A stretch of 64,000 nt of DNA from a virus. Its lineage: Duplodnaviria; Caudoviricetes. The notes under the pieces were generated by a model that saw only the letters and a list, made by a program, of their open reading frames with translations, had not been told where the DNA came from and ran no database searches. The position numbers and the translations under genes were made by a program. Within the stretch, counting starts at the first letter, position 1. Every line of letters begins with the position of its first letter. The stretch lies in the IMG/VR virus record IMGVR_UViG_3300042866_001263; one strand, 5' to 3'. Of the stretch, positions 4,371 through 53,157 are shown piece by piece.

Positions 4371-5017
4371 GCACTCTTGAAATATTCCCAGAAGCTATTG
4401 GGAAGTATTCTTTTGATTATGAAAGTAGAATTAAAATTAAAGATCTTTGTTTTGATATAATCAAAAGAAATTCTTTTTCTAAGAATAAAGATAGTAATAA
4501 TTTATACCACTATTGTAATACCAACAAAGAAAATTTATTAAATCTGGAGCAGTTTAAATGGTTTGAAGAAAAGATCTCAACATTTGCTGCCGACTATATC
4601 GAAAATATTTTAGGATATGAGTTAAAAGATGGTGTTGTAATTACAGACTGCTGGATGAATTTATGCCAAAATAATGGTGATCAGTTTTTACACAATCATG
4701 GCAACTCATTTATTTCTGGAACATACTATGTCAATTTTAATCCAGATGTTCATGGCAAATTAAAATTTCAGAATAAAAATATGATGTCTGGAATGAACTC
4801 TGCTCCTTATCTAGAATTAACAATTAAAAAGAATACAAAATACAACTCTGGAGGAGCAATAATGAATTATAATGAAGGCGATGTATTGCTATGGCAATCA
4901 CATTTAATTCATGGATATAGTGGTAATAATTCAGACAATCGCATTAGCATCTCATTTAATATTATGCCCAAACATTTTTATAATAATTCATATTCATTTA
5001 AGGTGGTGAGAGAATGA
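4367..5017 (+). CDS. 2OG-Fe(II) oxygenase (TIGR02466-like)
   Basis: HNH...SGTYY...LIHG...RISISFN motifs; ATGA overlap with the previous gene. Confidence 0.85.
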   Translation: MSTLEIFPEAIGKYSFDYESRIKIKDLCFDIIKRNSFSKNKDSNNLYHYCNTNKENLLNLEQFKWFEEKISTFAADYIENILGYELKDGVVITDCWMNLCQNNGDQFLHNHGNSFISGTYYVNFNPDVHGKLKFQNKNMMSGMNSAPYLELTIKKNTKYNSGGAIMNYNEGDVLLWQSHLIHGYSGNNSDNRISISFNIMPKHFYNNSYSFKVVRE

Positions 5018-10103: not shown

Positions 10104-10511
10104 ATGAGCTTAGAGGAAAACATGGAAGAACTATTGAATATCGAGGCGGAGGTTATCGAAGAACCAAAACCTGTGAGGGTTGAGCGTGAAGGTGACAAGG
10201 AAGACAAGATCAAAGACTACGAATATACACGAGGAGAATTATACAACCTCATCAGCAAGGGTCAGGAGGCGGTACAAGGCGCCTTAGAGGTCGCACAGGA
10301 GAGCGGACACCCTAGAGCATATGAAGTCGCTGTGAACGCCATGAAGCAGGTAGCAGACATGACTGACAAGCTTGTAGATCTTCAGAAGAAGATGAAGGAT
10401 CTAGATGCAGAGAATAAAAAAGTTACAAATGTTACAAACAATGCCATGTTTGTAGGCAGCACAACTGAGCTTCAGAAGATGCTGAAGCAGATGGGAGGAG
10501 GCAAACGATAA
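10104..10511 (+). CDS. gp16: Terminase small subunit
   Basis: DYEYTRGELY, HPRAYEV, NNAMFVGSTTELQKML. Confidence 0.95.
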   Translation: MSLEENMEELLNIEAEVIEEPKPVRVEREGDKEDKIKDYEYTRGELYNLISKGQEAVQGALEVAQESGHPRAYEVAVNAMKQVADMTDKLVDLQKKMKDLDAENKKVTNVTNNAMFVGSTTELQKMLKQMGGGKR

Positions 10512-10538
10512 ATATTTTGTTGTCTCCATATTCAAGCG

Positions 10539-10640
10539 ATGGCAAAGTCTGCTAACAAGAAGGGAAAGAAAGCACCTTCAAAACAAAACCAAGGTAATGC
10601 AACTGCGAAGAAAGCAAAGAATGGAGGCAAGAAAAAATGA
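10539..10640 (+). CDS. 33-aa Lys-rich basic peptide (not in ORF track)
   Basis: MAKSANKKGKKAPSKQNQGNATAKKAKNGGKKK; late promoter core TAAATA at 10509-10514; its stop overlaps the next ATG. Confidence 0.7.
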   Translation: MAKSANKKGKKAPSKQNQGNATAKKAKNGGKKK

Positions 10641-10828
10641 TGTCTGCTATAGCTTTTGTAATTATCGGCATGTCAGAGGTCTCGCCAAATATTTGCCAGA
10701 TTGATTACATGAGATATGTAGATATTCAATCTGTAAAGGTTCCATGTGATCTCATAAAACTAAATACTATTGATACGAAGTCGGAAGATGCCAGTTCCAG
10801 CAACCAACCTAAACTACATCAGAAATGA
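10637..10828 (+). CDS. Hypothetical protein
   Basis: ATGA-coupled to the previous ORF; no recognisable motif. Confidence 0.5.
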   Translation: MMSAIAFVIIGMSEVSPNICQIDYMRYVDIQSVKVPCDLIKLNTIDTKSEDASSSNQPKLHQK

Positions 10829-11066
10829 TGCGAACTGTGATCCACTAGCGATACAACCTGCTTCTACTACCGTTGATGTATTCGACGGAACAGAAGGTTG
10901 GACGGCATTTCAGTATAAAGACTTCAATGGTGATTATGTAGCTAGGAATATAGATAATACATCAAGAACTCCTGGAACATTTCAAGCAAGGAACTACGAT
11001 AATACTACTAGAACTCCTGCTGATTATCAACGTTATGACACAACAAATAATCCAGTATTAGCATAA
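10788..11066 (+). CDS. Hypothetical late protein
   Basis: TAAATA at 10761 precedes ATG 10788; internal repeats RNIDNTSRTP / RNYDNTTRTP. Confidence 0.7.
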   Translation: MPVPATNLNYIRNDANCDPLAIQPASTTVDVFDGTEGWTAFQYKDFNGDYVARNIDNTSRTPGTFQARNYDNTTRTPADYQRYDTTNNPVLA

Positions 11067-12430
11067 TGGCACAGTATAGCAAACACTACGAGGATCTCCT
11101 ACCACAGGAGAAAACAAACTTTGAGGTAGTCATGATTGCCGATAACTTCGGTAATCTTACTGCTGGAACTGGTGCGACTGCTGTTGATGCCTTTGGTCGT
11201 TTGAGAGTTGCCGAGACATTTACTCTAGGTGATTACAAGCATCTCTATGCTATTGACCCTAACTTCAACAATAGAACATTGAATGGTGCTACTATTCAAT
11301 ATGACGTGAATAAAGCATGTGCTAGGATGACAACAACATCTAATGTTGCTTCGAGTGCTGCTCACCAAACAAAGTTTTATCATCATTACCAGCCAGGTAA
11401 ATCACAAGTTATCTTTAGTTCGGTATGCTTTGGTTACGCCCAACAGAATGTAACCAAGAGAACTGGATATTTTGATGACAGAGATGGCATTTACTTCGAG
11501 CAAGTTGGAAATGGAACTTCCAACGGCACAACCAACGGCACACTCAACTTTGTAGTTCGTTCCTATGCTGGCGGTAGTGCTAGTGAAGCGACAGTGGGAA
11601 CCTACAAGAGAAGAGTTCCACAATCAGAATGGAGTATTGATCCTTGTGATGGAACTGGTCCTTCTAAGTTCAATATCAACACATCAAAAACTCAACTGGT
11701 TTATATTGACTTCCAGTGGCTTGGAGTTGGTAGAATTCGCTGTGGATTTGTTCATAACGGACAGATTATTTTAGCACATGAATACTACTGCTCAAATGTG
11801 CTATCAGAAGTTTATATGTCTAATCCAAACCTTCCAGTAAGATGTGAGATCTTAAACACAGGCACAACTTCTGGTGGTTCGATGGATCAGATTTGTTCCA
11901 CCGTGATGTCAGAAGGTGGATACACAGAAAGTGGCATTGACTTTATGCATTTGATGACAGCATCAAGAGCAGTTAGCGCAGGTTCCACTCTACCAGTATT
12001 AGCAATTCGTTTGAAAAATACATTCCAATCTTATCCAAATAGAATTTCCGTCAAGTTAAATAATATTGCTCTGTATCCAACTGGCGAAACGATGGCATTT
12101 CAAATTGCTAAACTTCCCAGTGAAGCAAGTTTGGCAGGAACACTTGCTTGGACTGATGTTGATGCTGATAGTGGCGTTCAATATTCTGTTGGTGCTACTG
12201 GTTATACAGCAGCAGATGCTGATGTCTTATTTGGTGGTTATGTAACTGCTGGTTCTTCACAGAACTCTTTATCTGCTTCTTCAACTGGTTCCATTTCTGC
12301 TGCCAAGAAAAACATTATCGTTCAGAATTTTGACTCAAATTCATCTGAAGTATATGTTGTATTGGTAACGAACATGGGTAATAACGCTGGCGCAATTAGA
12401 GCTGGTCTTCAATGGAGGGAGATTTACTAA
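11066..12430 (+). CDS. Putative virion structural protein
   Basis: DAFGRLRV motif, beta-rich, lies in a late operon; family common in cyanomyoviruses. Confidence 0.65.
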   Translation: MAQYSKHYEDLLPQEKTNFEVVMIADNFGNLTAGTGATAVDAFGRLRVAETFTLGDYKHLYAIDPNFNNRTLNGATIQYDVNKACARMTTTSNVASSAAHQTKFYHHYQPGKSQVIFSSVCFGYAQQNVTKRTGYFDDRDGIYFEQVGNGTSNGTTNGTLNFVVRSYAGGSASEATVGTYKRRVPQSEWSIDPCDGTGPSKFNINTSKTQLVYIDFQWLGVGRIRCGFVHNGQIILAHEYYCSNVLSEVYMSNPNLPVRCEILNTGTTSGGSMDQICSTVMSEGGYTESGIDFMHLMTASRAVSAGSTLPVLAIRLKNTFQSYPNRISVKLNNIALYPTGETMAFQIAKLPSEASLAGTLAWTDVDADSGVQYSVGATGYTAADADVLFGGYVTAGSSQNSLSASSTGSISAAKKNIIVQNFDSNSSEVYVVLVTNMGNNAGAIRAGLQWREIY

Positions 12431-12861
12431 TGAAAAACTATAAAGAAATCAAACATCTTGCTGAAGAAGCAAAGAAAAAAGAGCAAGAAGAAAAGCGTTT
12501 CTGTAAGCTCTGTCAAAAACCAGAGACCAGAAAAGAATGTTCCTATGGCGAGAAAGCATGGGATCGTTTCGCAGTTCCAGTTCAATCTATCAAAAGAGAA
12601 GAAGTAGAACTAGACGAAGCTGCTTGGACTAAAAAGGAGGGACAGAATAAGAATGGCGGTCTCAACGAAAAAGGTAGAAAGTCATACGAAAGAGCTAATC
12701 CTGGAAGCGACCTTAAGGCACCTTCAAAGAAAGTTGGAAATCCCCGCAGGGCGTCATTTTGTGCCAGAATGAAAGGACTAAAAAGTAAATTGACAAGTAA
12801 AAAAACAGCAAGGGATCCCGACAGCAGAGTAAATAAAAGCTTGAGGGCTTGGAACTGTTAG
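12430..12861 (+). CDS. Basic conserved phage protein (DUF6321-like), possibly an internal head protein
   Basis: KKEGQNKNGGLNEKGRKSY...RRASFCARM...SLRAWNC; LDE/A site resembles a prohead-protease cleavage site. Confidence 0.65.
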   Translation: MKNYKEIKHLAEEAKKKEQEEKRFCKLCQKPETRKECSYGEKAWDRFAVPVQSIKREEVELDEAAWTKKEGQNKNGGLNEKGRKSYERANPGSDLKAPSKKVGNPRRASFCARMKGLKSKLTSKKTARDPDSRVNKSLRAWNC

Positions 12862-12862
12862 A

Positions 12863-12911
12863 TTTCATACCTTTTCATTCTTATAAATAGTAGTAATGAA
12901 AAGGTATGAAA
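12863..12911 (+). promoter_or_regulatory. 17-bp hairpin sequestering the RBS and start of the endonuclease gene, with T4 late promoter TATAAATA (12882-12889) in the loop
   Basis: TTTCATACCTTTTCATT (12863-12879) is the exact reverse complement of AATGAAAAGGTATGAAA (12895-12911). Confidence 0.9.
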
Positions 12912-13322
12912 ATGTCAGAGAAAATTTGTACTAGGTGTAAGAATTCAAAACCAAGAACACCAGAATATTTCCCACTTCACAATAAATGTAAAGATGGTTT
13001 AGATAGTTGGTGTAGAGCTTGTAGAGCGTCTTATCGTAGTGAAATAAACAGAGGAAAATTTAGAGGACAACTTACTGATGATGAGGTAAGAAAACTGAAG
13101 CAACAAATCACATGTGATATATGTGGTAAAGAAGATACTGGTGGATCCAAGAACAATAAACATCTAGGCAAAGTAAAATCTTTGGTTATGGATCATGACC
13201 ACCACACTGGAAAATTTAGAGGAATGTTATGTAACCACTGTAATAGAGGATTGGGCAACTTTTTTGATAATGTAAATACTTTGGAAAATGCCATTTTGTA
13301 CCTAAAAAAGTGGAATTGCTGA
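12912..13322 (+). CDS. Endonuclease VII-family (His-Me finger) nuclease, probably a free-standing homing endonuclease
   Basis: N-terminal CxxC...CxxC; CDICG...MDHDHHTGKFRGMLCNHCNRGLG..DN. Alternative ATG at 12906. Confidence 0.85.
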   Translation: MSEKICTRCKNSKPRTPEYFPLHNKCKDGLDSWCRACRASYRSEINRGKFRGQLTDDEVRKLKQQITCDICGKEDTGGSKNNKHLGKVKSLVMDHDHHTGKFRGMLCNHCNRGLGNFFDNVNTLENAILYLKKWNC

Positions 13323-13376
13323 CATAAAACTGCCAAAAAATTTGTTGTTATTATAATTAGTTTTGAGGTTTCCATT

Positions 13377-13532
13377 ATGATAATGAGACTGAAAGAAGAA
13401 GATATCACACGACTTATTCTTGCTTGCGAACTTTACAAGAACTCAACTGGATCAGAGTATATCTGGGATCAGTATGAAGAACTTATAAAGACACTTAAAA
13501 CTTACCTTGAACAATACTCTACCGATGACTAA
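13377..13532 (+). CDS. Small hypothetical protein (51 aa)
   Basis: MIMRLKEEDITRLILACELYK...; GAGG RBS; overlaps the next ORF. Confidence 0.7.
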   Translation: MIMRLKEEDITRLILACELYKNSTGSEYIWDQYEELIKTLKTYLEQYSTDD

Positions 13533-13614
13533 TACACTTATAAGTGCTGTGCTAATCTTTTCTAGCATAGCACTTTTCATTTATTGGGGTTTGAATAATG
13601 CTTACCCTAGTTGA
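13525..13614 (+). CDS. 29-aa single-pass membrane peptide
   Basis: MTNTLISAVLIFSSIALFIYWGLNNAYPS; overlaps both neighbours. Confidence 0.55.
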   Translation: MTNTLISAVLIFSSIALFIYWGLNNAYPS

Positions 13615-13720
13615 ACACTTAGCATCAAGTCCAATATGGTTAGGACTTTGTGGATTTGGTATTATTGTCCTACCTATCATGGGAATACAATACATACACA
13701 GCAAAAAAGATGATACATGA
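13598..13720 (+). CDS. 40-aa single-pass membrane peptide
   Basis: MLTLVEHLASSPIWLGLCGFGIIVLPIMGIQYIHSKKDDT. Confidence 0.55.
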   Translation: MLTLVEHLASSPIWLGLCGFGIIVLPIMGIQYIHSKKDDT

Positions 13721-13835
13721 TTTTCCCTGGGGAGTAGTAGCAATACTTGGTTCTGGATTAATTTTTGTTTTATATGTTATCTACTACATACTACGGATGG
13801 CAACAGAGGAAATGAAAGACCATGACAGACACTAA
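13710..13835 (+). CDS. 41-aa single-pass membrane peptide
   Basis: MIHDFPWGVVAILGSGLIFVLYVIYYILRMATEEMKDHDRH. Confidence 0.6.
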   Translation: MIHDFPWGVVAILGSGLIFVLYVIYYILRMATEEMKDHDRH

Positions 13836-14259
13836 AGATCCATATATCTACCGTATTAAATCAGTTGGTAAAGTTGTAGATGGCGACACTATTGACGCTG
13901 ATATTGATTTGGGTTTTGATATTAGCCTCACTAAACGAATTCGTTTGGCGGGTATTGATACCCCAGAGAGCCGCACGTCGGATCCATACGAAAAGAAACT
14001 CGGACTTCAAGCAAAAGACTGGCTGAAGGAACGCTTACTATTTGCTAAGGATATTATCATCAAGACTGAACTTCCAGACAGCACAGAGAAGTATGGTCGT
14101 ATTATCGGACACCTGTATATCAACGGCGAAGAAGTATCGTTGAATAACCAGATGATCGCTGAAGGTCATGCCTGGGGTTACGATGGTGGCACTAAAGCTA
14201 AGGATTTTAACATTCTAAAGGAAATCCGAATTGCTAAAGGAACCTGGACAGAAGCATAA
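13822..14259 (+). CDS. Thermonuclease (SNase-like)
   Basis: VVDGDT, RIRLAGIDTPES, KYGRIIG motifs. Confidence 0.9.
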   Translation: MTDTKDPYIYRIKSVGKVVDGDTIDADIDLGFDISLTKRIRLAGIDTPESRTSDPYEKKLGLQAKDWLKERLLFAKDIIIKTELPDSTEKYGRIIGHLYINGEEVSLNNQMIAEGHAWGYDGGTKAKDFNILKEIRIAKGTWTEA

Positions 14260-14301
14260 TTTATAAGCATGTAAAGACATACTTATCAAAACGTAACATA
14301 T

Positions 14302-14354
14302 TGTAACACTATTTTCTGCTACATAGCTTATAATAAATGTAGCAGAGAGTTACA
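14302..14354 (+). promoter_or_regulatory. Hairpin with TATAAT in the loop, ending just before ATG 14356
   Basis: TCTGCTACAT (14315-14324) / ATGTAGCAGA (14337-14346), outer TGTAAC/GTTACA; TATAAT at 14329-14334. Confidence 0.6.
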
Positions 14355-14355
14355 T

Positions 14356-14586
14356 ATGTACGGATCTTATTTTATTATTGTTTTCTTTGCGATCCTAGTA
14401 GCATATGCTGGGGTCGAAGAGACGCTGAAACTCTTTGTCTATGCTGATCTCCAATTGCGCTATGCGTTTGTAAGAGTTCAGATGAAATGGATGGGTTGGA
14501 AACTCAAAAGGCAACTTGTACGAGATACAACCGATTTCAAAAAGTTTCTCAGCGAGTATAAAAATGAACACAAAGATTTGCCCTAA
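14356..14586 (+). CDS. Hypothetical membrane protein
   Basis: Hydrophobic N-terminus. Confidence 0.65.
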   Translation: MYGSYFIIVFFAILVAYAGVEETLKLFVYADLQLRYAFVRVQMKWMGWKLKRQLVRDTTDFKKFLSEYKNEHKDLP

Positions 14587-14776
14587 GTGCGGTGCTAATT
14601 GGATCAACGATCAACACTACTGGACTGGCACAAATAAGCCTGGCAACGAACTCGATTTGGCTGGATTGGTATGTAATAAACTAGGTGATGACACCTGCAT
14701 CAATCCCTGCCGTGGTAAAGAAGGTGGTATTACTTGGGAGAAGAGATTGACGGAGTTAGAAAACGACCACCCCTAA
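14564..14776 (+). CDS. Cys-rich hypothetical protein
   Basis: CPKC...C...C..PC; precedes gp17. Confidence 0.7.
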   Translation: MNTKICPKCGANWINDQHYWTGTNKPGNELDLAGLVCNKLGDDTCINPCRGKEGGITWEKRLTELENDHP

Positions 14777-14801
14777 ATACCAGTAGTGACTAGGTTTTAT
14801 T

Positions 14802-16454
14802 GTGGCAGCTGGTACTGATGTATATTTGGGTAATCCTAATCTAAAGAAAGCAGGAACCCAAATATCATTTACGAAAAAACAAATCAACGAATGGATCAAG
14901 TGTAAGAATGATCCAGTCTATTTTGCTGAAAATTATATTAAGATTATCTCACTAGATGAAGGCTTGGTGCCTTTTGAGATGTATGATTTCCAGAAGAATA
15001 TTTTAAGAGACTTCCATGAAAACCGATTCAACATCGCAAAACTCCCCAGACAAACTGGAAAATCCACTACGGTTGTTGCTTATCTGCTTTATTACGCAAT
15101 ATTCTTTGATAGCGTTAATATTGGTATCCTCGCTAACAAAGCTTCCACATCCAGGGAGCTCCTGAGTAGACTTCAACTAGCATATGAAAACTTACCCAAG
15201 TGGATGCAGCATGGCGTAGTTGTTTGGAACAAAGGTAATGTCGAACTTGAGAACGGATCAAAAATTCTGGCATCTTCTACATCTGCGTCTGCTGTCCGTG
15301 GCATGTCGTTCAATATCTTGTTCCTCGACGAATTCGCTTTCGTTCCAAACCATGTTGCAGAGCAATTCTTTGCCTCTGTTTATCCTACTATTACTTCTGG
15401 CAAGAGCACGAAAGTCATAATCATTTCAACGCCGAATGGCATGAACCACTTTTACAAGATGTGGATTGATGCCAAGAATGGTAAGAATGGTTATGTAATG
15501 AATGAGGTTCACTGGTCTCAGGTTCCTGGAAGAGATGCCAAGTGGAAAGAAGAGACACTCAAGAATACTTCACAAAGACAGTTCGCACAAGAGTTTGAGT
15601 GCGACTTCCTTGGTTCTGCTGACACTCTCATCAGTCCATCGAAGCTTCAAAACATACCATTCATTGACCCAATTACATCCAATGCAGGACTTGATATTCA
15701 CGAAAGAGTACAAAAAGATCACGAATACATTATTACTGTCGATGTTGCCAGAGGAATTGGTGGCGACTATAGTGCTTTCGTCGTGTTTGATATCACCACA
15801 CTGCCGTATAAGGTCGTGGCAAAGTACAGAAATAATGAAATTAAACCTGTACTGTTTCCCTCGGTAATTCTACAGGTAGCGAAGGAATACAATTTACCAT
15901 ATATCCTGGTAGAAGTCAACGATATTGGTGATAGTATTGCTGCTACTTTGAACTATGATCTAGAGTATCCTAACGTATTGATGTGTGCGATGCGTGGTAG
16001 GGCAGGTCAAATTGTTGGCACAGGTTTCTCTGGAATGAAAACTCAACTTGGTGTAAAGATGAGTGTGACAGTTAAGAAATTGGGTTGCTCCAATCTTAAA
16101 GCAATCATTGAAGAAGATAAACTAATATTTGGTGATTTTGAAATTCTACAAGAGCTTACCACATTCATTCAGAAAAAGATGGCGTGGGAAGCAGACGAAG
16201 GATACCATGATGACCTTGTGATGTGTCTAGTTCTCTTTGCATGGTTAGTCATGCAAGAGTACTTTAAAGAGATGACTGATCAGGATGTCAGACGCCGCAT
16301 CTATGAAGAACAAAGAAATCAAATTGAGCAAGATATGGCACCATTTGGTTTTATTGACGATGGTATGGGAGATAATAGTTTTGTAGACGCCGATGGATCA
16401 TTGTGGGAGTATGGAAATACTCAAGAAGAAGTAAGTTATATGTGGAATTACTGA
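14802..16454 (+). CDS. gp17: Terminase large subunit
   Basis: LPRQTGKST Walker A, LFLDEFAF Walker B, TVDVARG, HDDLVM. Confidence 0.98.
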   Translation: MAAGTDVYLGNPNLKKAGTQISFTKKQINEWIKCKNDPVYFAENYIKIISLDEGLVPFEMYDFQKNILRDFHENRFNIAKLPRQTGKSTTVVAYLLYYAIFFDSVNIGILANKASTSRELLSRLQLAYENLPKWMQHGVVVWNKGNVELENGSKILASSTSASAVRGMSFNILFLDEFAFVPNHVAEQFFASVYPTITSGKSTKVIIISTPNGMNHFYKMWIDAKNGKNGYVMNEVHWSQVPGRDAKWKEETLKNTSQRQFAQEFECDFLGSADTLISPSKLQNIPFIDPITSNAGLDIHERVQKDHEYIITVDVARGIGGDYSAFVVFDITTLPYKVVAKYRNNEIKPVLFPSVILQVAKEYNLPYILVEVNDIGDSIAATLNYDLEYPNVLMCAMRGRAGQIVGTGFSGMKTQLGVKMSVTVKKLGCSNLKAIIEEDKLIFGDFEILQELTTFIQKKMAWEADEGYHDDLVMCLVLFAWLVMQEYFKEMTDQDVRRRIYEEQRNQIEQDMAPFGFIDDGMGDNSFVDADGSLWEYGNTQEEVSYMWNY

Positions 16455-51352: not shown

Positions 51353-53157
51353 GTAGCGTAATAAGTGAAATATATAACGGTGGCAAAGTAAAATATCTAG
51401 ATCCATTTGTATCTGTTTTGCGAGATGGAAAAGAGGTATTTTTCCCTGGTGAAAAAGTTCCTACCCGTAGAGTTTATACAGCTGGAGCAAAAGTAAAAAA
51501 GATTTTAGAAGTTTACGATGTGTTTGTGGAGTGGGGTTTAGATGTTAGTGATAAATCTATCCTCGAAGATATTTTTGCTGATGAAGACTTTGATGCCAAA
51601 AGATCAAAACCTAATTGGAGAGAGATAGAGTTTCAGAATATTGCCGATGGAAAAATAGAAATCTATCGACTTGGTAAGATTGAAAAAGCTACCGTCTCCA
51701 CTTATGCAAAAAAATCCGATTCTAGATTCTCAGGAAAAACATCTGATTGGACAGAGACATTAACATGTTATGCTTTAGCATTTAGACAGGATAAGGGGTC
51801 TGCCATCACAGAAGCTGAGTTTAAACAGTTTTTGATGGATGGGAGAAATGGAGACATTAAAGTAAAGAATATTATAAGCAGAGATGTTGTCACTACACTC
51901 AATACAGAATTAGTATTTGAATTTGGAATAAATGAAGGTGAATGGATAAAGTCAGGAACCAACGTAGCAAATGCTTTATATGCTTCTCCATATCTAAAAA
52001 ATGGAACTCAGTATGATTTTTTCTTTGCTGGTGCTAAAGAAATAGAATGGTTCAAAAGTAAATGGACAAATAAGTTTAACTTGGTATTGGCAAAGCATCT
52101 AAGATCAGCAAATAATATTGCTGCTGATGTTCCCAGATATGGAACTGCTAATGCTGATAAATGGAATCCTGCTGATATCTTTGCCATCTCCAAAAATTTA
52201 AAACGATTTCAAGAAGGACCTCAAGCTTCTAGGGGATTCTTCAAAGGAACTCTGGCTGAGTATAACAAGTTCAGAAAGAAAAATATATCTCCATCTGATG
52301 GAAAAGTCAAAGAAGATATGGCAGAGTTGGTAAGATATAACTCATGGATTCATGAGAATATTCTTAATGGAACTTTGATTCCTATATCTTTGAAGAAAGC
52401 TTTGAAAACCACTAAAGTTGATCTAATCTCAAATCCATCTATTGATGACTATAGTATTGAAGTTAAAGATATGAGAGTTAGTTGGGAAAAAACAGCACAG
52501 AAGATCTACATTTACTTTACAGTAGAATACACTATTTCTGTTGCTGGAACTAAAAACAAAACTAAAAAATCATATAGTTACTTTTTTGATTGTAGAAATT
52601 TTGGTCCTTCAACTGGTGTTCAGTTCGAACTTGGAATTGATGGATCTTCTGCTAAACAAGGAAAAGTTGCCGCAGGCCCAGCAGCGATGATTATAGATAT
52701 GACTAGTTCAACCATCTATAATAAGATAAAGGAAGTCAGAAAAAAGTTTTTAGAAAATAATAATTTTCCAGAAAAACTAGCAAAAGAGTTTACGAATAAG
52801 ATTATCAATAAATCTAGGCAAAAGTTCTTTACTGATAATGAGGACATTAATGCTATAGTCAAACATTCTGGGTGGATTGATTTATTTTCTTCGTATATTG
52901 AGACTTTATCTGGTGAAACTGGATTTGGTATTGAATCTAATCCTCAGAAAGCTCTAACTTATTTTAAATCTAAGATTGGTCCTGTGGAGTTAGGGTGGAT
53001 TATGACCAGTAACCAGATACAAGCAACTATAAAAAATAATGTACTGAAGTCTTTGTATCTATATGCGGGATCTCAGGGACTACAGATCTTTGATGATTCT
53101 GGACTACTCAAGACAAGTTATTTTTACAATTCATCTTATGTGAAGGTTAGAGACTAA
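51349..53157 (+). CDS. AT-rich 602-aa hypothetical protein, possibly a nuclease
   Basis: DKWNPADI...ISLKK motif; sampled line 52501-52560 is 17/60 GC. Confidence 0.6.
   Translation: MSSVISEIYNGGKVKYLDPFVSVLRDGKEVFFPGEKVPTRRVYTAGAKVKKILEVYDVFVEWGLDVSDKSILEDIFADEDFDAKRSKPNWREIEFQNIADGKIEIYRLGKIEKATVSTYAKKSDSRFSGKTSDWTETLTCYALAFRQDKGSAITEAEFKQFLMDGRNGDIKVKNIISRDVVTTLNTELVFEFGINEGEWIKSGTNVANALYASPYLKNGTQYDFFFAGAKEIEWFKSKWTNKFNLVLAKHLRSANNIAADVPRYGTANADKWNPADIFAISKNLKRFQEGPQASRGFFKGTLAEYNKFRKKNISPSDGKVKEDMAELVRYNSWIHENILNGTLIPISLKKALKTTKVDLISNPSIDDYSIEVKDMRVSWEKTAQKIYIYFTVEYTISVAGTKNKTKKSYSYFFDCRNFGPSTGVQFELGIDGSSAKQGKVAAGPAAMIIDMTSSTIYNKIKEVRKKFLENNNFPEKLAKEFTNKIINKSRQKFFTDNEDINAIVKHSGWIDLFSSYIETLSGETGFGIESNPQKALTYFKSKIGPVELGWIMTSNQIQATIKNNVLKSLYLYAGSQGLQIFDDSGLLKTSYFYNSSYVKVRD

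Follow-up and report, generated by a model that had tools for sequence, protein, structure and literature searches.

Why do two neighbouring phage genes, one for a DUF6321 protein and the next for an Endo VII-motif endonuclease, end in the same W-N-C-stop written with different Asn, Cys, and stop codons? We examined this question in a 64-kb stretch of DNA (the window). The DNA sequencing runs that hold it are lake-water metagenomes; we take the source to be a freshwater T4-like cyanophage and the window to be its g16-g17 segment. The ORF at 12430-12861 closes with TGG AAC TGT TAG at 12850-12861 (...SLRAWNC*), and the ORF at 12906-13322 closes with TGG AAT TGC TGA at 13311-13322 (...YLKKWNC*). 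A preliminary description of this DNA had reported this pair of ends, and both coordinates and codons were confirmed. From the window's own amino-acid frequencies, a W-N-C tripeptide has a chance of about 8e-6, and of 77 long ORFs in the window only these 2 end in WNC. The comparative data on empty and occupied loci indicate that the repeat is homologous and not a coincidence. TGGAAYTGYTRR occurs a third time at 52140, but there it is out of frame within an ORF of 602 aa, and we rejected it as a chance match. The site lies in the variable region between the terminase genes g16 and g17 of a T4-like cyanophage, and its features are as follows.

g16-g17 segment: terminase small-subunit-like ORF
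11066-12430: virion structural protein (phrog_1645)
12430-12861, + strand: DUF6321 gene, now hybrid (Pfam PF19846, E 1e-21; the match reaches the last profile position); by identity to the empty-site loci L037/L038, recipient-like to about 12774 and donor-like in the last 87 nt
12775-12861, + strand: foreign, co-converted DUF6321 3' tract, from alignment to empty alleles
12850-12861, + strand: upstream tail copy TGGAACTGTTAG (WNC-stop), now the DUF6321 end
12863-12911, + strand: perfect 17-bp hairpin (fold -23.9 kcal/mol, z -3.7)
12906-13322, + strand: free-standing Endo VII-motif (DHHRN-type) endonuclease gene (PF02945, E 1.2e-15; phrog_2633)
13311-13322, + strand: TGGAATTGCTGA, formerly the last three codons and stop of the recipient's DUF6321, with which the endonuclease ORF now closes
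13323-13532, + strand: 54-nt spacer (with TATAATTA) and phrog_5190 small gene (13377-13532; E 3e-23)
13822-14259: staphylococcal-nuclease (SNase) homologue (PF00565, phrog_452), in a variable stretch before terL
14802-16454: terL

The SNase homologue before terL is present in some relatives and absent from others. Sigma-70-like promoter elements follow the DUF6321 stop: TATAATTA (window 13351-13358) lies before the phrog_5190 gene, and in the context of L010/L071, TTGACG-17-TATAAT comes after the DUF6321 tail. The endonuclease is therefore located at the boundary between a late unit and probable early units.

Empty sites and the end of the DUF6321 gene

We mapped 80 of at least 596 IMG/VR loci encoding DUF6321 relatives with tblastn. 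The closest relatives, L037, L038, L040, L039, L041, L052, and L056, all lack the endonuclease. The DUF6321, phrog_5190, and SNase proteins of L037/L038 are 97%, 98%, and 92% identical to those of the window, and the phrog_5190 product of L040 is also 98% identical. At the empty sites (L037-L041, L052, and L056) DUF6321 ends with TGGAATTGCTGA, which runs straight into the sequence that follows the endonuclease in the window (cataaaactgcc... in L040). The preliminary description had predicted this direct junction; L040 has it letter for letter, and the six others likewise lack the insert. The TGGAACTGTTAG version, which the same description held to be incompatible with an insertion when found at empty sites, is not the one carried by the nearest of them. 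The phrog_5190 gene is the native neighbour of DUF6321 at empty sites, and the distance from stop codon to phrog_5190 start is 54 nt both after the empty-site DUF6321 and after the window's endonuclease. The window tail at 13311-13322 is identical to the empty alleles at 12/12 positions, stop codon included. Together with the next 120 nt it matches L037 at 123/132, while the 30 nt before it match at only 8/30. In a blastn comparison with L038, homology breaks at about 12837 and resumes at 13310. The flanks of occupied and empty sites are collinear, and the endonuclease is a presence/absence polymorphism at one precise site, which is occupied in the window and L004-6 and empty in L037, L038, L040, and others. 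Sequencing run X7 holds an occupied variant like L004-6; no contig joining across the insert (the empty allele) was found among all contigs of the sequencing runs. Tail-codon statistics for empty and occupied loci are descriptive only, the two sets sampling different DUF6321 types.

Identity to the empty-site relatives changes in three steps, with 96% in the 5' part of DUF6321, 63% in its last 87 nt, and 91% from 13311 onward. Against L037/L038, the window's DUF6321 gene matches at 331/345 nt up to about 12774 and at 55/88 in the last 87 nt, and the drop at about 12774 is sharp. The tract at 12775-12861 has about 30 substitutions relative to the empty alleles and just 2 amino-acid changes. It is closer to other occupied alleles (L009/L010, 72/87; L007, 68/87), and the AAC TGT tail type is also found in occupied L007 and L009/10. 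Lake-metagenome alleles match the preceding block up to 12776 and diverge immediately after it. These identity steps indicate that about 460 nt of donor DNA (gene end, hairpin, and endonuclease) replaced the recipient gene end and spared its last 12 nt. Allele comparison shows the origin of each part: the donor gave the last 29 DUF6321 codons, the stop, the hairpin, and the endonuclease, and the recipient's DNA resumes at 13311. It likewise shows that the donor DNA joins the recipient's last 12 nt, so the endonuclease ORF stops on the target's W-N-C-stop, and that the foreign DUF6321 end is mostly synonymous and leaves the protein intact.

The preliminary description had proposed that the element supplied a recoded replacement end and adopted the original one as its stop. 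A foreign recoded end is indeed present and appears to have been supplied with the cassette, but it covers about 87 nt (12775-12861) instead of 3 codons, and it is a foreign DUF6321 allele that was carried in, not a purpose-made recoding. The adoption of the original 3' end is borne out by the 12/12 match to the empty alleles, although the event may be earlier than this genome.

By the same comparison, the left crossover is shown to lie at or upstream of about 12775, within a strongly conserved block. Window positions 12690-12774 are nearly invariant in nucleotide sequence among close relatives, and in 74 distinct sequences the third codon positions of this stretch are moderately more conserved (0.74-0.77) than those of its flanks (0.5-0.6). 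The crossover must lie in this stretch, at the end of which contigs from metagenomes break off. The left breakpoint in the window (about 12775) coincides with the start of a DUF6321 remnant in L027 (equivalent to 12778). Since the block upstream of 12775 is nearly invariant, a crossover further left would be invisible, and thus we do not claim a cut site from the coinciding breakpoints.

The window and L005 share an island of ~1.1 kb (about 12530-13550) with 99-100% identity, centred on the cassette, while they are 72-94% identical elsewhere. The island suggests that the cassette and its flanks moved between backgrounds recently, and it has the appearance of a recent transfer with co-conversion. 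Co-conversion of flanking sequence is also indicated by the 87-nt foreign tract (63% versus 96%). Over window positions 10400-15900, the upstream structural gene of L005 is only 72-84% identical despite the identical endonuclease region; the structural gene of empty-site L038 is closer to that of the window (93% aa), and the neighbourhood is strongly mosaic. No direct donor was found, the nearest other occupied lineages being 79-87% identical in protein sequence.

The endonuclease and its predicted late control

The endonuclease product has 138 aa, or 136 aa if the start is the ATG at 12912. Its Endo VII motif is C-terminal (residues 70-118 of 138) and follows an N-terminal CxxC...CxxC finger. 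The DHHRN Endo VII-motif homing endonucleases have the catalytic/zinc motif CX2-4C ... DHDH ... R ... CX2C ... N (PMC6083498). All DHHRN residues are present in the window's enzyme (C70-x2-C73, D96 H97 D98 H99, R105, C109-x2-C112, and N113). As read from the translation, C70/C73/C109/C112 are the zinc ligands and D96, H97, H99, R105, and N113 the other motif residues. The match to Pfam Endonuclease_7 (PF02945) is limited to profile positions 21-82, and the best solved relative is Hpy99I (E 6e-10, aligned over residues 5-136), not T4 Endo VII. The Hpy99I alignment ends two residues after a common YLKK, and thus WNC lies outside the conserved fold. Among cultured phages, tblastn gave full-length matches to endonucleases of T7-like phages and of LUZ24 (gp35), which are intron-encoded or free-standing. 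A close homologue was found in only one cultured cyanophage, S-SRM01, although 398 phage records contain the DUF6321 gene by DNA search. The 64-kb window has no second Endo VII copy. An N-terminal motif, a C-terminal dimerisation domain, and core conservation would be expected of a gp49 resolvase, and none of these was found. The full-length matches to intron-encoded or free-standing endonucleases and the single close homologue in S-SRM01 argue that the enzyme is not a gp49 resolvase. On sequence grounds, it is a free-standing DHHRN-type member of the F-CphI/Hpy99I "endonuclease" clade with predicted homing activity.

The hairpin has a perfect 17-bp stem (12863-12879 paired with 12895-12911). 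Its right arm holds AAGG and the ATG at 12906, so the start codon is covered, and its loop carries TATAAATA at 12882-12889. The cyanophage late-promoter motif is NATAAATA (PMC2984593). Sixteen distinct loci have the stem sequence conserved, and the two arms change in length together (T4/A4 versus T5/A5); the TATAAATA motif is conserved as well. Among these 16 loci, no pair was changed on both sides, that is, no compensatory substitution was found, and therefore support for the structure comes solely from sequence conservation and the coupled arm-length change. Analogous hairpins are found in a second endonuclease family (family B) and in the cultured phage S-H34. According to a review of T4 endonucleases (PMC2988022), I-TevI, segB, and mobE of T4 have a hairpin that sequesters the ribosome-binding site and AUG, with a late promoter inside it. 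The layout of the hairpin and TATAAATA matches this scheme, and a similar control is predicted. A 202-nt contig from a 2015 freshwater metatranscriptome matches window positions 12823-13024 with no mismatch, bridging the DUF6321 tail, the hairpin, and the 5' part of the endonuclease; DNA carry-over is possible in this RNA library. The sequencing runs all consisted of contigs, and no transcript start was seen in them.

Occupied loci of two endonuclease families

Homologues of the window's enzyme (family A) were found at 33 IMG/VR loci. In nearly all of them the gene directly follows a gene ending in W(N/K)C-stop; the exceptions are L014 and the distant L036, and L018 is without upstream sequence. 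There are at least 4 diverged DUF6321 tail types upstream and 6 downstream contexts; what comes next is the phrog_5190 gene or terL, a different small gene, a spacer with a promoter, or the remnant of a DUF6321 gene. Local empty sites align collinearly with the tail and what follows it in five occupied lineages, L119 of family B among them (87-93%), whereas the 30 nt before the tail are unrelated. Most endonuclease homologues end in residues other than WNC. The preliminary description had allowed for a universally conserved gp49 whose homologues all end in WNC, which does not agree with these differing tails or with S-SRM01 as the only close cultured homologue. The window's ORF is exactly as long as homologues with the tails RDK, RNI, and RNN. 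The nearest lineage, L009/10, ends in RNC (AGG, not TGG), and L023 ends in NNC. Given the equal ORF length and the RNC of L009/10, part of the tail likeness could be native, or the fusion could be ancient. In the tree, L009/10, the window with L007 (98/96 support), and a 20-row clade (RDK, NRG, RNN, RNI, and NNC) are separate lineages. The identical junction occurs in several lineages and downstream contexts, and thus the fusion may predate this genome. An old fusion may have been followed by drift in a tail free of constraint, or several separate events may have fallen within the Trp codon.

The endonuclease of L027-29 still has its native tail (RDRNN), and behind it lie 27 codons left over from the end of the recipient's DUF6321 gene, to all appearance the same type of event on a larger scale. 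The upstream tail TGGAATTGC is kept in occupied L027-29 and S-H34, and the recoding of occupied tails is inconsistent; therefore those 9 nt alone cannot explain immunity. Several copies are decayed. The start codon is lost in L010 (ATG to ATA) and L026 (ATG to ATT), L007 has an eroded hairpin and the tail TGGAACTACTAA, read out of frame after a 2-nt deletion, and L035 has a truncated hairpin arm. The start-codon losses, the L007 frameshift, and the eroded hairpins fit the life cycle of a selfish endonuclease. Two of the gene neighbourhoods had further peculiarities. At L014:2915-5395, terL has an in-frame intein-like insert after the Walker-A PRQTGK and, at EFE|C, a second insert divided between two ORFs, the first stopping at 4672 and the next running from 4730 to ...SHN|CEFLGS; this terL may be a split intein or a "fractured" terminase gene. 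At L027:202-2461, and also in L028 and L029, a large protein with a DUF6321 tail is encoded in two overlapping frames (202-2079 and 1973-2461), which could be a frameshift, an assembly error, or two genes.

Family B (L042/L117-118, L119, and L120-121) is 32% identical to the window's enzyme and occupies the same slot. Its enzymes end in YL(K/T)K-W(N/K)C-stop, and the DUF6321 gene upstream of them always ends in WAC. Here, too, local empty sites match the tail and downstream sequence collinearly (L117 versus L039, 118/132; L119 versus L093, 115/132), and L119 shares with L093 a local TAA stop. The other 36 family-B relatives are more distant, lie away from DUF6321, and have other ends (KERGSYG, DYLKK, and others), so that the tail is found in 5/41 loci, only next to DUF6321. 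Over the last codons and the tail, 30 nt are identical between the family-A gene of the window and family-B L042, suggesting that one cassette took the place of the other where the site was already occupied. In the cultured S-H34, a DUF6321-type tail is followed by hairpins and then by a B-related endonuclease ending in TNC-stop.

Homing, the alternatives, and known systems

We consider it probable (about 0.8), from the sequence comparisons, that a homing-endonuclease cassette entered the last codons of the DUF6321 gene, brought a foreign gene end with it, and has its ORF closing on the target's WNC-stop. The cassette would consist of a start-codon-occluding hairpin with a late-promoter motif and the Endo VII-motif nuclease. 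The enzyme would cut endonuclease-less DUF6321 alleles near the 3' end, and repair of the double-strand break would copy the cassette and its flanks (intronless homing). Occupied alleles would be spared, the site being interrupted and its halves changed. The hairpin would block translation on read-through late mRNA, while transcripts starting after the TATAAATA in the loop would lack the left arm and be translated, as for I-TevI, segB, and mobE of T4. The tail repeat flanking the cassette may act as short homology arms, which would explain the same junction in different downstream contexts.

The matching ends might instead be a coincidence of a native tail, if the family natively ended in R/W-N-C and had inserted cleanly after the DUF6321 stop. 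All family-A ORFs have nearly the same length, and RNC (L009/10), NNC (L023), RNI, and RNN make a plausible series in which AGG to TGG is one change. However, the window tail equals the empty-site DUF6321 end at all 12 positions including the stop, and homology starts exactly there. Moreover, the conserved fold ends at YLKK in Hpy99I, the L119 tail has the local TAA variant, and the unrelated family B has such a tail only beside DUF6321. Collinearity with the empty sites and the family-B ends thus make this coincidence very unlikely. A housekeeping role as a gp49-like Holliday junction resolvase for packaging, ancestral near the terminase genes and lost elsewhere, would suit the Pfam family Endonuclease_7 and the position between g16 and g17. 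We regard it as extremely unlikely, since the motif lies at the C-terminus, after a zinc-finger domain, and the protein lacks the dimerisation domain of T4. Furthermore, the best matches, Hpy99I and intron-encoded enzymes such as LUZ24 gp35, belong to the endonuclease clade (PMC6083498), a close homologue occurs only in S-SRM01 despite the 398 phage records with DUF6321, and from the nearest relatives the gene is precisely absent.

The endonuclease could also be passive cargo, an accessory gene shuffled in the g15-g18 region with the conserved DUF6321 block as a crossover hotspot and no self-driven spread. Hypervariability of this region is already known (PMC2984593), different phages have many unrelated genes after DUF6321, and cleavage by the nuclease is itself inferred here. 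Shuffling accounts poorly for the exact position at the DUF6321 stop with no fewer than 4 diverged tail types and in 6 downstream contexts, for at least two lineages (A, B, and the B-related S-H34 enzyme) at the same point with the lineage-specific target variant WAC, and for the 99-100% identity island centred on the cassette. Exact position, repeated lineages, and a cassette-centred island are marks of intronless homing (PMC2988022). Passive cargo is therefore an unlikely explanation, and homing remains our preferred reading.

Neither the class of the enzyme (DHHRN, F-CphI) nor its mode (intronless homing with co-conversion, under hairpin control) is new. F-CphI (cyanophage S-PM2 ORF177, PMC6083498) is, like the window's enzyme, free-standing in a T4-like cyanophage. 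Both have a C-terminal Endo VII motif (CX2C, DHDH, R, CX2C, N) and group with LUZ24 gp35 and Hpy99I, not with resolvases (PMC6083498), a likeness drawn from motif and clade. F-CphI targets the psbA intron site, whereas the window's enzyme would target the DUF6321 3' end, has no intron partner, carries a replacement end for the target, and shares the target's stop. Hpy99I (PDB 3fc3) aligns over residues 5-136 with both zinc sites, and the alignment ends just after the same YLKK; unlike the window's enzyme it has an extra N-terminal domain and a paired methylase, and there is no methylase at the window locus. The T4 seg/mob endonucleases (PMC2988022) resemble the window's gene in intergenic cassettes, flank co-conversion, and sporadic distribution, and the I-TevI-type hairpin with an internal late promoter resembles the layout predicted here. 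The enzymes of T4 belong to the GIY-YIG or HNH type, and their cuts usually fall hundreds of bp away from the endonuclease gene, whereas all junctions here cluster within the last 90 nt of the target gene. No mention of 3'-end replacement or a shared stop was found in the parts of the review consulted.

In fungal mitochondria, endonuclease genes are known to bring a foreign copy that replaces the end of the host gene (PMC3630166). In the mobile ORFs of Allomyces macrogynus atp6 and Glomus atp6, atp9, cox2, and nad3 (PMC3630166), the endonuclease ORF lies near the host gene 3' end, as here. Before it stands a foreign copy of the gene end, with mostly synonymous differences and about 64% nucleotide identity (63% here); the native end remains after it and is most like the alleles of relatives (PMC3630166). 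The window has the same arrangement, with 55/88 matches to empty alleles upstream and 12/12 downstream, as do L027-29 with their 27-codon remnant. The fungal enzymes are LAGLIDADG or GIY-YIG and reside in organelles, whereas here an Endo VII-motif enzyme resides in a phage, and of the native end just 12 nt remain, on which the endonuclease ORF closes (in L027-29 the remnant has 27 codons). In a literature search, we found no description of gene-end replacement by an endonuclease in phages, none of an endonuclease ORF ending on the last codons of its target, and no paper naming DUF6321. The S-SRM01 genome paper does not discuss the endonuclease gene.

A broader scenario is tentative, and we hold it doubtful. 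At least two unrelated Endo VII-motif lineages may compete for the DUF6321 end, with the 12-nt repeats as portable arms. If so, these arms would let a cassette enter any DUF6321 gene whatever its neighbours, the tails WAC (family B) and AAC-TGT (the window's clade) would be lineage-specific immunity alleles, and repeated breaks would help drive turnover of the host-derived metabolic genes just downstream.

The locus would be a clean natural case, in a phage, in which a homing endonuclease mends the invaded gene by supplying a new end, as described so far for fungal mitochondria. Empty and occupied alleles from the same lake populations, a second lineage with a diagnostic target variant, and two cultured carriers (S-SRM01 and S-H34) are available for comparison, and therefore target recognition, immunity, and T4-style late control are directly testable. 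The DUF6321 site lies at the left edge of the cyanophage g15-g18 hyperplastic region. Since it borders this hypervariable region with its host-derived metabolic genes, endonuclease-induced breaks could be one cause of the variability.
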